Positions 20,801-32,800 are shown, counted from the stretch's first letter. The stretch: 64,000 nt of DNA from Actinobacteria bacterium UBA7524 (GCA_002478275.1 DLMY01000031.1:62001-126000), one strand, 5' to 3'. A program made the numbers.

Positions 20801-23800
20801 GTTCCAGCCCGACCAGGCCTTGCGGTGTTTCGGCAGGAAGCCCGGGTCGGTGTGGAGCACGATCGGGTTGGGCCAGAAACGGAAGGCACCGAGTACCTCG
20901 CGCTCGGCAGGCGACGCTCCATCGCCCAGCATCTCGAGCGTCTGAGGGGGGTGGCTCGCCAGGATCGCTGCGTCGTAGACCTCGGAACGGCGCGAGGTGT
21001 GCACGCGCACGCCTGTCGTGATGCGCTCGATGCGCTCGACGGGCTCCTCGGCATGGACCTCGCCGCTGAACGTGCGTGCCGCCGCCTCGACGTAGCGTTT
21101 GCTGCCGCCGGTCACGCTGCGCCAGATCGGCTTGCCGGTGATGTGGAGCAACCCGTGGTTGTCGCAGAAGCGCAGGAAGGTCGCGGCCGGGTAGTCTAGC
21201 ATCTCACCCGGCGGTGTCGACCAGATCGCGTCGCCCATCGGGATGAGGTACCAGTCGGTGAAGCCGCCGCTGTAGCCTTCACGCTGGAGCAGCTGGCCCA
21301 GCGTAAGGCCCTCGACGGTGGGGTCGTGCAGCAGGCGGTCGGCATCGCGCGAGAAGCGCACGATATCGGCGAGCATCTTGAGGAACTTCGGGTTCACGAT
21401 GTTCTTTCGCTGGGCGAAGATCGAGTCGAGGCTGTCGCCTGACCACTCGATGTCGTCGCCTTCGATGTGGACGGAAAAGGACATGTCGGACTCGGTGTGC
21501 GCGATGCCGAGCCGTTCGAAGAAGCGGACGATGTTGGGATAGGTGCGTTCGTTGTAGACCATGAAGCCGGCGTCGACCGCGAAGGTCTGTCCATCGACGG
21601 TGACGTCGACGGTGCGGGCGTGGCCTCCGAGCCAGTCCTCGGCCTCGTAGAGGTCGACGGTGTGCTCGGGAGATAGGAGCCACGTAGAGGCGATACCCGC
21701 GATCCCGGCGCCCGCGACTGCGATCCGCACGACTAGACCTCCGTAGATAGGGGACTATACGGGTAGTGATTCCCAAATCACGTGCGAGAACATCGCGAAC
21801 CAGGAGGCGCGCATGCCGCTCATAGTCATCACAGGGGTGTCGACCGGCATCGGCCGGGCGTGCGCCGAGCTCTATGCGCGCAGGGGCTGGCAGGTCGTAG
21901 GCACCGCGCGCGACCCGGGGCGGCTTGGCGACATCGCCTGGCCCGGGCCGGGAAGCGTGCACCTCGAGCCGCTCGACCTGGAGGCGGTGGGCTCGGGGGC
22001 CGGATTCGCCCAGGCCGTGCTGGAGCGCTACGGCGCGCCAGAGGTCGTGCTGGCCAACGCCGGGATGGTGCAGTTCGGGCCCGTGGAGGCCGCGCCCGCG
22101 GCGGAGATCGAGCGCATCTTCCGGGTCAACACCTTCGAGCAGGTCGGCATGGCGACGGCGTTCGTCCCCGCGATGCGGGAGCGCGGCAGCGGCACGCTGG
22201 CGTTCGTCACCTCGCTCGGCGGGCGCATGACCTTTCCGTTCTTCGCGGTCTACAACGCGAGCAAACACGCGATGGAAGGCTTCTCCGAAGGGCTGTGGCA
22301 CGAACTCAGAAGCTCCGGCATCCGCGTCAAGGCGATCGAGCCGGGCTTCGTGGAGACCGCCATCTGGGGCAAGGCGCTGCCCTCCGACCCCGGCGAGCTT
22401 GATGCGCCTGCCGCGTACCGCGAGCAGATGCTCGCCATGCTGCGCTTCGAGGCGGGCATCTCAAGCCGCACCACGCCTGAGCGCTCTGCCGAGGAGATCG
22501 CCCGCGCTCTCGACGATCCCGGCGACCGGCTACGCTATCCGGTCGCGGCGTACGCGCGTCCTTTACTGGCGGCCCGCCGACTGTTCGGCGATCAACGGAT
22601 GATGCGCTTCTTCCACCGTCGCTGGCTGGGGTGAGCCGTCGCGGGCTGTTGCGCCGGCACGCCCCTCGCCGCCGAGCGCCCGCCTCTAGCCACCCAGCAA
22701 CGTGACGCGCACCTCGTGTTCGGCGCCGTCGCGTGCCAGCGGCACGAGCAGCCCGGGGAGGTCCTCGCCGTCCAGTGCCACGCGCTCGACACCGCGGTTC
22801 ACGCCACGGGGATTCTCCACGGTGATCCGGTAGAGGGTGCCTTGGTCCCGGTACTCAAGTTCATAGCTCTTCCATGACCTCGGGATGCAGGGATCGACCC
22901 TCAGATGTCGCTTCTCGTCCTTGACCACGACCCATAAGCCCAGGTGGTGACGTATCACCACTTGATAGAACCATGAGGCCGAGCCGGTGTACCAGGTCCA
23001 GCCGCCACGGCCCACGTGCGGCTCTGCTGCATAGACATCGGCGGCGACGACGTAGGGTTCTACCTTGTAGACATCGGCCGCTTCCCGGGTCAGGGCGTGC
23101 TTCACCGGGTTGATCAGGTCGAGGAGCCCATGTGCCTCGTCACCGTCACCCTGGAGGAGGTAGGCCAGCACCACCCATACGGCTGCATGGGTGTACTGGC
23201 CGCCGTTCTCCCGCACGCCCGGCACGTAGCCCTTGATGTAGCCGGGGTCGTGTTCCATCTTGTCGAACGGCGGCGCCAGCAGTGCCACGATCCCGGTCTC
23301 GCGCTTGATGAGCTTCTCCTCGACCGCGTCGAGTGCGCGCTGTGCGCGGTTCGGGTCGCCGCTTCCGGAGATCGTAGCCCAGGCCTGCGCGATCGCATCG
23401 ATCCGGCACTCCTCGGCATGCCGGGTTCCCAGAGGCGTGCCGTCATCGAAGTAAGCGCGGCGGTACCATGAGCCGTCCCAGCCCTCGGACTCGACGGCCT
23501 GGATGAAGCGCTTCGCGCGTTCGCGGTACTCGGAAGCCCGCTCGGGTTCGTCCATCAGCTCGCACAGTGGTGCGAAGCGCCGGAGCACCACGTCGAGGAA
23601 CCAGCCGAGCCACACGCTCTCTCCCGTACCATCGATGCCTACCCGGTTCATGCCGTCGTTCCAGTCNNNNNNNNNNNNNNNNNNNNNNNNNNNNNNNNNN
23701 NNNNNNNNNNNNNNNNNNNNNNNNNNNNNNNNNNNNNNNNNNNNNNNNNNNNNNNNNNNNNNNNNNNNNNNNNNNNNNNATGCCGTCGTTCCAGTCGCCG

Positions 23801-29800: not shown

Positions 29801-32800
29801 ACCCTCGCGCGGTTGAGCGGGTGCGCGATCGTGCTGACGAGTTTGCGCGCTCCGTCGCGCGGCAGTACCGTGTCCGCATCGAGTGTCAGTACGAAAGTGA
29901 CCGCTCGCAAGAACTCTTCATCGCCGGTGACGTGCGCGAACGAGGTGTCCGAAGACGCCCGCAGCCAGTGATTGAGCTCCATCAGCGATCCGCGCTTGCG
30001 CTCCCATCCCATCCACGAGTTCTCTGCTTCGTTGAAGCGTCGCTCCCGAATGAACAGCGCGAACGGCCGCCTGCCGTGTTCCACCTCGTACCGCTCGTTG
30101 AGTGAGGCTATACCTTCGATAGCGGCCTCGATGATGGCGGCGTCTCCTACTACCCGCTGGTGTTCGGAGGCCCTCAGGTCGCCGAGGAGACCGAAGCCCA
30201 CGTTGTCGTCCCTATTGGCGAGGTACGCGACCTCCAGGTTGTCCAGCACTTTGCGCACCGCTGGAACGGACGTGATGAGCGCGGGAACTATCACGAGGGT
30301 GCGGTGTGACTCCGACAGGGGCTGAAGATAGTCGAGCTTCGGTAGTACCCGCGGTGGGAATACCCATGCAGAAAGCCGGTTGGTCATGCTCAACGCGAGG
30401 TCAGAGAGCGGGATCAGCGCCAGTAGCGCCACTATCGCCAGTGCCCTCGTGCCGGAGCCCTCAAGCAGCAGCCAGGTCGCCAGCATGCCAAGCAGGGCGA
30501 CGGTCAGAACGGCAAGAACACCCCAGTAGAACAGTCCCTTGTTGGCGAGAGGCCCTCGGTATAGCACCTCTCTGAAGTGCGGACGGTAGCGGACCGAGCG
30601 TTCGAACTTGAACCGGCTTGCGCTGATCAGGTAGTGGCCTACGTGCCCTGCCACCTGGTCGCTGGGGTCCGTGATCAGGGCTTGGACACAGTGAGAGATG
30701 ACTGCTTCGGCCACGGTGATCTCATCGAGGGGCGTCCGCCTGGCGAGAGACTCGAGCGCGTGCCGGTACCGGTCGCGGCTCTTGAAGTCCATACGGGGGT
30801 AGACCCCTGATGGGTCCTGCCTCAGGATCTGTTCGACGACACAGGCGGTCTCGAAGAACGTCCGCCATTCGTAGGCGTCGAGGAAGCGGATGGACGTGAT
30901 GGTGTTCGCGATGGATATCTGGTCAGCGGCTTGCGCCTGCTGCAGGTCGTGAGCCAGTTGGTCGAGTGTGATCCCAAGGGCAGACAGCCGCCGCTCCAAC
31001 CACGCCCCGATAGGCTCGACCCCGATGTCTTGTCCGCTCAGGCGCTGAGAGAGCCTCATGAGGAACACCGGAGACGCCTTGGCCACTTCCGATTCCAGGG
31101 CATCGATCAACTCGCGAAGGCTCTCGGTCTGTTCGGGGGCGGCGAGCAAGAGCCTGTCTGCCCAGACATCCGCCCTTCGTCCGGCGACGTGCGCCTCGGC
31201 GACACTCCGAGCCAGCCGGCGTGCGTTCTCGACGAGAGCCACGCGCAACATGATCGGGACCGCCCACACTTCACCGATGGACCATGGGCTCGAGTCCTGG
31301 AAACCGTCGCTGAACTCAAGCAGGTACTCTTCATCGATGCGCGCGTCGGTGTGTGCTATGAGCGTGACCGCGCATGCGTACACTCGGGGCAGTCCGGCGA
31401 ATGGACCCTCGAGCACCCGCGGCAGTTCGCGTCCGTATCCCGACGGCAGATCGGAACGTACCGTTTGCACCTGCTCCTCGATGAGATAGTAGTTGTCGAG
31501 GAGCCATTCGCTCGCCGGCGAGATGGGGTGCTGAAGACGTACCGCTTCGGCTAACAAGGAGTTGTGGCTGCCCATCTCGGCCCCGGCATCGTCGACCATC
31601 TGGCGCAGCGGAGTGTCCCGCGTTGCCGGGGTCGTGCTCCATGTCAGTTGTTCGGCCAGCTCCCGGGCGCGCACTCTGAGACGTTCGGCAGTCAGCAGGG
31701 TGGCGCGGAAGGGGCCCGAATCGGCAACGGTCTGTGTATTCGGCGCCTGGAAGGGCACAGCTCACTCCCCTGATCGGCCGCGTGGGCCGGTCGCTGTTGG
31801 TCGTATCCTTGCTAAGCAAGGTGGCAACGCGATAGGTGTATTATCCACAACGGCGGCGGGGAGAGGACAGGGTACTGGCGACTATATACCCCAGGGGGTA
31901 TACTGAGCGCACATCGGCAAAGAGTCAGGAGTCATGATCTCATGAAGAACCCAGGCAAGATCGCCATATGGGCAGTCATAGGGATAGCGGTGCTGGTCAT
32001 AGGCTTCATGGCATTCTCGCCGGCGGAAGGCACGGTCGAGAATGTCGATGCGAGGAGACTGGCAGACCTCGTCGCTTCCGGCGTGAGGGTGATAGACGTC
32101 CGAACGGAAGGTGAGTACGCGGCCGGGCACATCGCAGGTGCAGAGCTCGTACCGATCGACCGGTTCGCTCAGGCGGCGGCTACATGGGACCGCACTGTGC
32201 CGCTCGCGGTGTACTGTGCGACCGGACAGCGCTCGACGACTGCAGTGAACCACCTGTCCGGCCAGGGATTCGAGAAGGTATATCACTTCAATGCCGGACT
32301 CGTGGCCTGGAGCGGAACACTGGAAAGAGGTGCCACTGCCGCGGCGCCAGCCCCAGAGCCGACAGCCAGTGCGCTGCCGGTCGTCTACGAGTTCTTCACT
32401 GACACTTGACCCGCCTGCGTCCAGGTGAAGCCTGTGGTCGACAGGCTGGTCAAGGAGTATGAGGGCAAGATTGAGTTCAGGCTCCTCAACGCGGGTACCG
32501 ACGCTGAAGCCACTGATCTGATGATGAGATTCGGAGTGACGGCCGTGCCGACGTTCGTGTTCCTCGGCAGTGATGGCGCGAACGAGGGCAAGATCATCGG
32601 GGCGGCGTCCGAGCAGGAACTGCGCGCCAAGCTCGACTCGCTCAAGTGACGTTGGTGTTGGACGCTCGTGCGACGTGGGTATATTCATTACATACCGGGT
32701 CTGAGCCCGGAAGGTACGTTGATAACGGCAAAGGAGTAGACCCGGTGACAGAAGTCGTTTCAGGCCGGGATGGCAGATGAAGGCCTCTGGATCGGCCCAG

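Follow-up and report, generated by a model that had tools for sequence, protein, structure and literature searches.

Thermoanaerobacter italicus is a Firmicute, and its CGS, the synthase of cyclic beta-1,2-glucan, thus provides a precedent already outside the classical Proteobacteria. Of this enzyme only the isolated cyclization domain (PDB 8WY1), founding member of the GH189 family, was characterised biochemically by Tanaka et al. 2024 (PMC10834661). T. italicus is called Gram-negative in the review PMC11842490 and consequently, as far as the available text of that review goes, the literature in print does not bring up the single-membrane question. The Agrobacterium Cgs (PDB 8RF0, PMC10901819) contains, in this order, an N-terminal domain (NTD), a transmembrane region (TM), the GT84 glycosyltransferase, a second TM, the cyclization domain (CY) and GH94. 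An enzyme of this type is a single chain of ~2800-3000 aa, anchored by helices that flank the GT domain and with its catalytic domains in the cytoplasm. Roles of the GT84/Cgs residues, including the aspartates that coordinate UDP, the D-x-D and R-W motifs, the catalytic base and the self-glucosylated tyrosine, are taken from the accessible part of PMC10901819, and those of the GH189 residues from that of PMC10834661. The stand-alone GH94 phosphorylases (cellobiose, chitobiose and 1,2-beta-oligoglucan) are soluble proteins of ~800-1100 aa devoid of a GT84, membrane or GH189 part.

The window analysed here, a stretch of 64,000 nucleotides from Actinobacteria bacterium UBA7524 (order Anaerosomatales), very probably carries one intact gene for a giant synthase of cyclic beta-1,2-glucan; the gene's apparent split stems from two scaffolder N runs. 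The ORF listing gives two minus-strand ORFs, one of 2771 aa that begins with GTG (23443..31758) and one of 321 aa (22686..23651). Two N runs, 23667-23779 (113 nt) and 27502-27616 (115 nt), lie within or at the end of the 2771-aa frame, and the frame change between both ORFs coincides exactly with the former. Each of the six N runs in the window is flanked by an exact duplication of 17-23 nt. The two runs in the gene sit between contig ends that really overlap, which generates the 2771-aa ORF, the 321-aa ORF and several plus-strand calls. The predicted gene and its interruptions are as follows.

22686..31758, minus strand: whole cgs gene, 8805 nt after collapse, i.e., 2934 codons and a stop at 22686-22688
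27479..27616, no strand: scaffolding artefact, 23-nt duplicate 27479-27501 (= 27617-27639) plus 115 N; removal of 138 nt keeps the frame
23650..23779, no strand: scaffolding artefact, 17-nt duplicate 23650-23666 (= 23780-23796) plus 113 N; removal of 130 nt moves the frame by one
31765..31770, minus strand: Shine-Dalgarno-like GGGGAG, read directly from the sequence, 6 nt upstream of the start codon (GTG, 31756-31758)

Collapses of 138 nt (a multiple of three) and 130 nt (one more than a multiple of three) join the frames exactly and restore 2934 aa; the 17-nt duplicate at 23650-23666 encodes the motif with the GH94 catalytic aspartate. In the public run X1, an 8034-nt contig passes from 27478 straight to 27617 and leaves out 138 nt; 23 letters at the join fit either side. 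No X1 contig bridges the 23667-23779 junction: they stop at 23666 and resume at 23780. When the three pieces of the gene (A, B and C) are aligned with six relatives whose open frames (2958-3007 aa) are uninterrupted, neighbouring pieces overlap by just 7 and 5 aa in all six, and piece C terminates at the C-terminus of each. The overlaps are also recovered on structures 8wy1_A and 8rf0_A (2529 versus 2525 on the latter). Letter for letter, pieces A (1-1380), B (1374-2613) and C (2609-2934) make up P0003, a protein of 2934 aa encoded on a 43,936-nt contig of a public collection, which begins at the same GTG at 31756-31758; P0003 possibly originates from the same sample and is thus not fully independent support. 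The survey's finding that the minus-strand frame continues into the next ORF as one gene is borne out by the collapses, the relatives and P0003, and its doubt about intactness, raised by the N runs and the frame change, has been cleared up: the breaks are assembly artefacts. As for its corrected gene model, the single frame stands, yet the correction only reverses a scaffolding artefact and an identical intact call of 2934 aa is already public.

The Pfam domains reported by the survey on the 2771-aa ORF (GT2, Glycoamylase and GH94) were reproduced. The Glyco_trans_2_3 match at 622-851 is marginal (28 bits against a cut-off of 27 bits; 26.5 bits on P0003), while Glycoamylase and the GH94 supersandwich reach 73.7 and 533 bits, respectively. 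Glyco_hydro_94 is divided over two pieces (profile positions 2-190, then 186-420) but is a single match on P0003 (profile 2-420 of 420, residues 2428-2851, 381.6 bits). No NCBIfam model matches any of the three pieces. Together with the structure alignments, these matches delimit the following predicted regions (residue numbers follow the 2934-aa protein).

30529..31527, minus strand: N-terminal cytoplasmic domain, ~residues 78-410, aligning with the NTD of Agrobacterium Cgs
30385..30519, minus strand: first predicted transmembrane helix pair, 414-432 and 440-458 (Kyte-Doolittle, window 19, peaks 2.51 and 2.22)
29314..30351, minus strand: GT84 glycosyltransferase domain, ~470-815, with D527, R587, D627/D629, Y696, D741 and R775-W776-R778 (Pfam and 8rf0_A alignment)
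28789..29307, minus strand: second membrane region, ~818-990, strongly hydrophobic at 818-862, with a weaker pair at ~945-985 below threshold
27617..28761, minus strand: N-terminal half of the cyclization (GH189) domain, with S1109 and D1112, aligning with 8wy1_A 13-163 and 310-336 and 8rf0_A 991-1150
26740..27501, minus strand: C-terminal half of the cyclization (GH189) domain, with E1396, E1440, E1482 and H1576/H1577, aligning with 8wy1_A 331-584
22689..26739, minus strand: GH94 phosphorylase (length-control) region, supersandwich 24433-25152 and N-run-interrupted catalytic domain 22938-24339, with D2478 and D2612

The Kyte-Doolittle profile is strongly hydrophobic at 414-458 and at 818-862, on either side of the GT domain, the third pair being sub-threshold; the 8rf0_A alignment runs unbroken through the second membrane region. 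The N-terminal half of GH189 holds a poorly conserved helical insert (~residues 1157-1373).

The predicted protein, of the Cgs/ChvB/NdvB type, is collinear with Agrobacterium Cgs over 85-1150, 1279-2529 and 2525-2808 of the 2818 residues of the latter (piece A, 78-1157 against 85-1150, E 1e-213; piece B, 2-1240 against 1279-2529, about E 7e-286; piece C, 1-288 against 2525-2808, E 1e-94) and shares its domain order. Identical counterparts were found for Agrobacterium D527, R586, D624/D626, Y694, D739, R773-W774, R776, S1101, D1104, E1300, D2393 and D2528. The T. italicus cyclization domain matches piece B 1-254 (E 5.3e-84) and the N-terminal half of GH189 (E 4.6e-51), while the C-terminal region matches GH94 structures 1v7v (E 1.7e-48) and 3rrs (E 5.8e-43). 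Stand-alone GH94 phosphorylases share the supersandwich, catalytic domain and catalytic aspartate with the C-terminal 1300 aa; unlike in those enzymes, GH94 here forms the tail of a synthase. Differences from the Agrobacterium system include a longer CY helical insert (~215 aa here, ~130 aa there), a single-membrane host, the lack of an adjoining exporter gene and membership of a deep clade of its own.

We located the catalytic residues manually on printed HMMER alignments and judged their invariance over seven sequences of the order. All those checked are retained in the predicted protein and invariant in all seven sequences, i.e., the GT84 motifs, primer tyrosine, GH189 nucleophile and acid/base, and GH94 aspartates. 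In the GT84 site, D527, D627/D629, D741 and R775-W776 match Agrobacterium D527, D624/D626, D739 and R773-W774, and the predicted primer tyrosine Y696 aligns with Y694 of the IF1-homology loop. In GH189, E1482 (nucleophile), E1396 (acid/base), E1440 and H1576/H1577 correspond to T. italicus E1442, E1356, E1400 and H1536/H1537, and in GH94, D2478 and D2612 (catalytic acid) correspond to Agrobacterium D2393 and D2528. The Cgs/NdvB-type identity proposed by the survey is thus upheld by collinearity and by these residues.

From the sequence we infer enzyme activity, a ring product and its size. By homology with Agrobacterium Cgs, the GT84 domain, anchored by the membrane helices that flank it, would assemble beta-1,2-glucan from UDP-glucose on its own primer tyrosine, Y696. 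The C-terminal GH94 domain would trim this chain by phosphorolysis via D2612, and the central GH189 domain, using E1482 as nucleophile and E1396 as acid/base, would free a ring of ~17-25 glucoses by intramolecular transglycosylation.

The cgs gene is nearly universal in the order. A search with the Cgs-specific N-terminal 1380 aa found it in 137 of the 146 order genomes, among them 94 of the 98 of high quality, and the carriers cover 73 of 76 genera and all 25 families; the earlier count of 88/145 was based on Pfam Glyco_hydro_94. No match was found in the other 9 of the 146, four of which are 94-96% complete, so that cgs is dispensable in some lineages. Elsewhere in the phylum, only 3 of 396 sampled genomes carry it. 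Homologues occur across many phyla, including Clostridia (Clostridium psychrophilum and other Clostridiaceae), the proteobacterial ones being 34-45% identical over the N-terminal 1380 aa. In the tree, from which T. italicus is absent, the sequences of the order form a single deep clade (100% SH-aLRT) apart from diderm phyla; the Clostridiaceae clade is separate from the Coriobacteriia clade, and both branch deeply, outside the large diderm clade. Orthologues from Coriobacteriia/Anaerosomatales MAGs (58-73% identity over 440-1160, ~2900-2960 aa) have the same three Pfam domains. The cgs gene is single-copy in the source genome, and its divergently transcribed neighbour is a small gene.

31942..32409, plus strand: rhodanese-like protein of 155 aa (Rhodanese E 4.8e-15)

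This gene adjoins cgs in all six relatives examined (L011-L016; 42-64% identity) and, together with a DEAD helicase and a cyclopropane-synthase cluster, belongs to the flanking genes common to the relatives.

The window as given does change frame at the 23667-23779 run, on either side of which the X1 contigs halt, as would be seen in a pseudogene with a real frame change or missing sequence that breaks GH94. Such a pseudogene is nonetheless very improbable: the exact 17-nt duplicate and 113 N add up to the 130 nt that restore the frame exactly, the Pfam profile, the six relatives and 8rf0_A are continuous across the junction with a 5-residue overlap and no gap, an identical uninterrupted protein of 2934 aa is on record, and the same artefact recurs at the other five N runs. 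Hardly more credible is a mis-binned contig bringing in the gene of a double-membrane organism from the same metagenome. The source genome, with 60 contigs and 83% completeness, is an assembly of metagenome type and Cgs is best known from Proteobacteria, but the estimated contamination is 0.58% and the records of the nearest relatives (53-73% identity) bear the names Coriobacteriia, Actinobacteria or Anaerosomatales. The distribution within the order, with shared flanking genes, and the single well-supported clade of the order apart from diderm phyla likewise argue against it.

An active enzyme with another product or role, either releasing linear beta-1,2-glucan or acting chiefly as a phosphorylase/transglycosylase that remodels or degrades imported beta-1,2-glucan, is also improbable, though less so. 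GH94 and GH189 reactions on linear chains are described as reversible in the available text of PMC10834661 and PMC11842490, the former has the choice between ring and linear product set by substrate length, and the CY helical insert is ~100 aa longer than that of Agrobacterium. Against this reading, every GT84 residue including the primer tyrosine is invariant and would be superfluous in a purely degradative enzyme, and the invariance extends to GH189, with its nucleophile, acid/base and supporting residues. Furthermore, no additional GH94 or GH144-like gene that might feed or use linear glucan was found in four of the five genomes examined, and cultured members of the order do not ferment carbohydrates according to the accessible part of PMC9686372.

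The survey had assumed that these bacteria have no outer membrane, and our results agree. Omp85 and LpxC were each found in none of five order genomes (four of them 100% complete), in keeping with a cell that has a single membrane; diderm control genomes gave matches (7 for Omp85, 4 for LpxC). The wall of cultured isolates of the order is of the Gram-positive type (PMC9686372, in the part available). Judged by these markers, the outer-membrane-bounded periplasm of the proteobacterial cyclic-glucan system is missing here. In that system a dedicated ABC exporter (Cgt/ChvA/NdvA) accompanies Cgs and the product stays in the periplasm; here, no exporter gene adjoins cgs at the locus. With the exporter model NF010178, none of five order genomes reached the 733-bit cut-off (best 383 bits), but neither did cgs-bearing Betaproteobacteria (3/3, 394-404 bits) or Clostridium (2/2), so that a score under this cut-off tells nothing either way. 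The two ABC_membrane proteins of the source genome score 236 and 284 bits with this model, which misses cgs-bearing Betaproteobacteria too, and generic ABC_membrane exporters occur in 98 of 100 order genomes. Our guess, at about even chances, is that a generic ABC exporter delivers the glucan to the wall zone or medium; that it is kept in the cytoplasm would be a somewhat weaker guess.

The enzyme family is well known and the novelty is modest. Cgs in single-membrane bacteria is not unique, given the homologues in Clostridium psychrophilum and other Clostridiaceae. Regarding the survey's claim of a new pathway in Actinomycetota, our literature search found no paper linking Coriobacteriia or OPB41 with beta-1,2-glucan, and none discussing the Coriobacteriia/Anaerosomatales orthologues; the claim is weakened by these homologues, by the characterised T. 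italicus domain and by existing JGI labels. JGI's automatic annotation often names the MAG orthologues 'cyclic beta-1,2-glucan synthetase' (some are 'cellobiose phosphorylase'), whereas the same proteins at NCBI are 'glucoamylase family protein', 'GH36-type glycosyl hydrolase domain-containing protein' or 'hypothetical protein'. Cyclic beta-1,2-glucan synthesis may conceivably be an old core trait, with a non-periplasmic role, throughout this order of Actinomycetota, whose members are tiny single-membrane cells of the subsurface that do not ferment sugars, although we regard this as rather doubtful. If so, the glucan could serve, e.g., as a cytoplasmic or wall-zone osmolyte, crowding agent or molecular host. 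The order-wide trait, along with the deep Coriobacteriia and Clostridiaceae clades outside the diderm clade, would then imply that the periplasm is not what the enzyme evolved for, and the textbook 'periplasmic glucan' would name just one use of its product.

The third-position GC of cgs (0.77-0.83) is similar to that of neighbouring genes. Plus-strand ORFs at 23503-24411, 25255-25746, 25849-26277 and 26386-27330 fit the four short calls of the survey. They lack a Pfam match (0 of 5 ORFs tested), and their first-codon-position GC of 0.74-0.84 is as expected of antisense shadows of the minus-strand frame.

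The 9-kb stretch at 22686-31758 of the window, here termed cgs, is covered on the minus strand by two open reading frames: one of 2771 aa with a GTG start (23443..31758) and one of 321 aa (22686..23651) in another frame. The longer ORF reads through two runs of N, at 27502-27616 (115 nt) and 23667-23779 (113 nt), and the frame change is located at the second. The survey's finding of one long minus-strand frame that changes phase near its end is thus borne out by the ORF listing and the positions of the N runs, which split the protein into three pieces, A, B and C. In the translations, an identical short peptide flanks each run, of seven residues at one and five at the other. 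Each of the window's six N runs has an exact repeat of 17-23 nt, the end of the sequence before the run being the start of the sequence after it. Such duplicated flanks are the signature of overlapping contig ends that were joined with an estimated gap. Collapsing the run and one copy of the repeat removes 138 nt at 27479-27616, a multiple of 3, and 130 nt at 23650-23779, one more than a multiple of 3; this one-base shift brings the frame of the 2771-aa ORF exactly onto that of the 321-aa ORF. After both collapses the frame measures 8805 nt, or 2934 codons.

The other N runs of the window, all with exact duplicated flanks of 21-23 nt, are:
33273-33401, repeating the 3' end of a tRNA-Ala (33198-33272)
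33712-33833 and 34125-34225, either a short way upstream of an ABC-transporter ATPase gene or within its start
60649-60771

Since the same artefact occurs at all six runs, further genes of this assembly are probably affected and their models broken likewise. Here, N runs with uncollapsed overlaps caused a 9-kb gene to be missed by the gene caller, and antisense ORFs were called instead.

Six lines of evidence agree that cgs is intact. In X1, a public sequencing run with contigs, a contig of 8034 nt passes from 27478 straight to 27617, leaving out 138 nt, and 23 letters agree with either side; X1 is a different assembly, but it may come from the source sample and so does not count as independent data. 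A search for public runs containing this DNA listed no RNA run. Six uninterrupted relatives, with open frames of 2958-3007 aa, were fetched from six families of the order Anaerosomatales. In all six, piece A ends seven residues past the start of piece B and piece B ends five residues past the start of piece C, which reaches their C-terminus. Of Pfam's GH94 catalytic profile, piece B covers positions 2-190 and piece C positions 186-420. The solved cyclization (GH189) domain of Thermoanaerobacter italicus CGS (8wy1_A) runs unbroken through the first junction (27502-27616), and the solved Agrobacterium tumefaciens enzyme (8rf0_A) is continuous through the second, where B ends at 2529 and C starts at 2525. 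Finally, P0003, a public-collection protein of 2934 aa encoded on a 43,936-nt contig, contains A at 1-1380, B at 1374-2613 and C at 2609-2934, letter for letter, and its GH94 catalytic domain gives one match (2-420 of 420 positions, 381.6 bits).

The weak spot is the 23667-23779 junction, which no X1 contig bridges, contigs ending at 23666 and beginning at 23780. Within 23633-23816, the X1 assembly breaks exactly at the 17-nt word, leaving one loose end and two very short contigs (depth 32 and 100 versus 21). This duplicated word codes for a conserved motif around the GH94 catalytic aspartate, and we infer that the likely cause of the break is that this word is common to GH94 genes of other organisms in the sample. 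Further features are in keeping with a genuine gene: GGGGAG lies 6 nt upstream of the GTG start (31756-31758), none of the five plus-strand ORFs tested inside cgs has a Pfam match, and in three of these internal ORFs the GC content at first codon positions (0.80-0.84) mirrors that at third positions of cgs (0.77-0.83).

All three pieces match 8rf0_A, a cryo-EM chain of 2818 residues, with E-values of 1e-213, about 7e-286 and 1e-94, and cover it in the same order at 85-1150, 1279-2529 and 2525-2808. Residues ~1157-1373 of the window protein are poorly conserved; they are the counterpart of the helical insert described for the cyclase domain of Agrobacterium Cgs (PMC10901819), and are roughly 100 aa longer here. 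Functional residues named in passages of two papers (PMC10901819, PMC10834661) were mapped by hand on the printed HMMER alignments, chain numbering being checked by the paper-named R586 and D624/D626 in 8rf0_A and H1536/H1537 in 8wy1_A (offset 1003).

Functional residues of characterised enzymes and their counterparts in the window protein
GT84: Agrobacterium D527, R586, D624/D626, D739, R773-W774, R776; here D527, R587, D627/D629, D741, R775-W776, R778
Primer site: Agrobacterium Y694; here Y696
Cyclase: Agrobacterium S1101, D1104, E1300; here S1109, D1112, E1396
Cyclase: T. italicus E1356, E1400, E1442, H1536/H1537; here E1396, E1440, E1482, H1576/H1577
GH94: Agrobacterium D2393, D2528; here D2478, D2612

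Every mapped residue is invariant in the window sequence and the six relatives. Strong membrane segments in the hydropathy profile, 414-458 and 818-862, flank the GT domain, and a third pair lies under the threshold used. The Pfam domains reported by the survey were reproduced, the GT2 match being marginal (28 bits for a 27-bit cut-off). An NCBIfam search of the three pieces returned no family, and no named Cgs model matches. The identification consequently rests on the solved structures; judged from this sequence-to-structure correspondence, the assignment as a predicted synthase of cyclic beta-1,2-glucan is sound.

The source genome (1.81 Mb, 60 contigs, 83% complete) carries one copy of cgs. 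With the N-terminal 1380 aa as query (E <= 1e-30), the gene was found in 137 of 146 genomes of the order, comprising 94/98 high-quality genomes, 73/76 genera and 25/25 families, with open frames mostly of 2900-3100 aa. The nine genomes of the order that gave no match are 52-96% complete, four of them 94-96%. One genome, G516, has two full-length copies (C3:4384-8496 and C16:7313-11425, open frames of 2954 and 2960 aa) in addition to fragments, which may point to gene duplication or to a bin of mixed origin. The phylum was sampled evenly, with only two candidates scored per genome, and 8 of 401 genomes matched: five from the order, the source genome included, and three from elsewhere, one of which is full-length at 38% identity and two partial. 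No cgs was found in the 20 listed genomes from other orders of the same class, nor in their three families (0/27). The nearest named records (53-63% identity) are MAGs titled Coriobacteriia, Actinobacteria or Coriobacteriaceae, and named proteins at 61-67% identity are labelled "Anaerosomatales bacterium", which supports the lineage to which the survey had assigned this DNA.

At least 672 stretches in a collection of species-representative genomes encode relatives. They occur in Pseudomonadota, Bacteroidota, Planctomycetota, Verrucomicrobiota, Acidobacteriota, Nitrospirota and other phyla, and also in Clostridiaceae, including the isolate Clostridium psychrophilum. A tree (LG+G4, SH-aLRT only) was computed for residues 440-1160 and 76 rows, drawn from the best 80 of these relatives after five short ones (L023, L029, L039, L044 and L066) were dropped. 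Twelve rows, the window sequence among them, make up a Coriobacteriia clade (support 100%), one of them carrying the title Eubacteriales; five Clostridiaceae/Firmicutes rows form a second clade (99%), and a third group holds the other 59 rows, each of which is unlabelled or from a diderm phylum. The tree supports a deep and separate Coriobacteriia clade. A "basal" placement of this clade is not supported, the tree being unrooted and comprising the best 80 matches only.

The survey had described the host as lacking an outer membrane, and this held: Omp85 and LpxC were each found in none of five genomes (the source genome and four that are 100% complete), while the same searches were positive in 7 and 4 diderm controls, respectively. 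CWB2-type domains are characteristic of the surface proteins found in single-membrane bacteria. Two proteins of the window carry them:
39357-41822, minus strand, triple CWB2 cell-wall-binding domains
43127-44536, plus strand, triple CWB2 cell-wall-binding domains

One of the two also has TIG and matrixin-like parts. Both fit the missing outer-membrane markers. The order has two cultured members, Anaerosoma tenue and Parvivirga hydrogeniphila, whose cells are described as thin rods, 0.12-0.18 um in width and Gram-positive in wall type (PMC9686372). A. tenue tolerates 0-70 g/l NaCl. Together, the absent markers, the wall of the isolates and the CWB2 proteins place the enzyme encoded by cgs in a single-membrane cell.

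Work on cyclic beta-1,2-glucans has dealt almost exclusively with Proteobacteria, in which they act as osmoprotectants of the periplasm and in host interaction. The survey put forward as new a corrected gene model and a cyclic-glucan pathway in Actinomycetota. This was overstated, since the family is known and its orthologues already named; what stands, and is modestly new, is the distribution: in one single-membrane order cgs belongs to the core genes, and elsewhere in the phylum it is almost missing. The literature has established the Cgs family together with its structure and three activities (PMC10901819, PMC10834661, PMC11842490), and mentions about 4200 hits by BLAST and, in CAZy, 1930 entries under GT84 (PMC12102758). 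Orthologues from this lineage are already in databases, where the JGI pipeline calls many of them "cyclic beta-1,2-glucan synthetase" and NCBI "glucoamylase family protein", "GH36-type glycosyl hydrolase domain-containing protein" or "hypothetical protein". Literature searches for Coriobacteriia with "2-glucan" returned nothing, and those for OPB41 with glucan nothing relevant by title or abstract. We found no publication discussing cgs in this lineage, although supplements could hold gene lists. Thermoanaerobacter italicus is a Firmicute. As the source of the characterised CGS domain, it was called "a Gram-negative bacterium" in a 2025 review (PMC11842490), a label that may explain why publications have not taken up the matter of Cgs in single-membrane bacteria.

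Genomes of the order measure 1.2-2.9 Mb. That a 9-kb gene is kept in 137/146 such small genomes without an outer membrane, the rest of the phylum being almost without it, points to a non-periplasmic role of strong selective value. The boldest of the readings that still stand is that cyclic glucans could have an ancient, non-periplasmic role, which would be of greater interest, if true, and is testable in existing isolates (PMC9686372). These isolates cannot ferment carbohydrates, and the word "glucan" does not appear in the main text of their description (PMC9686372).

The following genes neighbour cgs:
31942-32409, plus strand, rhodanese-like protein of 155 aa, divergent from cgs
31882-32688, minus strand, ORF of 268 aa overlapping the rhodanese gene, with no Pfam match
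18451-21730, minus strand, downstream of cgs, cyclopropane-synthase cluster (amine-oxidase-like flavoprotein, DUF1365, CMAS)

The rhodanese-like gene adjoins cgs in all six relatives, and thus in six families, at 42-64% identity; the overlapping ORF is less conserved. The cyclopropane-synthase cluster, another envelope-modifying function, is kept in three of the six. An SDR gene lies beside cgs in three relatives and a DEAD helicase gene in four, and the ABC-2 transporter at 34290-38074 is common only to the relative of the same family. The genes conserved next to cgs in the six relatives include neither a transporter nor a glucan-modifying gene; the neighbourhood therefore shows no operon logic.

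A candidate glucan exporter was sought elsewhere in the genomes. The two ABC_membrane proteins of the source genome retrieved only generic ABCB/MsbA-type chains among their top 60 PDB matches and scored far under the cut-offs of the NCBIfam glucan-exporter models. One such model, NF010178, was over its cut-off in none of five genomes of the order. Three Betaproteobacteria that carry cgs, and two Clostridium genomes, likewise scored under the cut-off, so the model is too narrow to tell anything. Generic ABC_membrane exporters are present in 98 of 100 genomes of the order with >=90% completeness (E <= 1e-8). For both reasons, the notion that the order has no exporter was dropped. Just two genomes, G019 and G025 (100% and 96% complete), have no ABC_membrane exporter yet carry a cgs that looks intact (2945 and 2995 aa, respectively).

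A storage cycle with separate enzymes for synthesis and degradation is unlikely in most members, because GH94 and GH144-like domains are confined to cgs in four of the five genomes searched. The fifth, G005, has a second locus (C38:23543-26889), which was not found in the other four; it comprises a stand-alone GH94 gene with an open frame of 1347 aa and a GH144-like gene whose product of 451 aa scores 281 bits against Glycoamylase, and it possibly serves beta-1,2-glucan breakdown.
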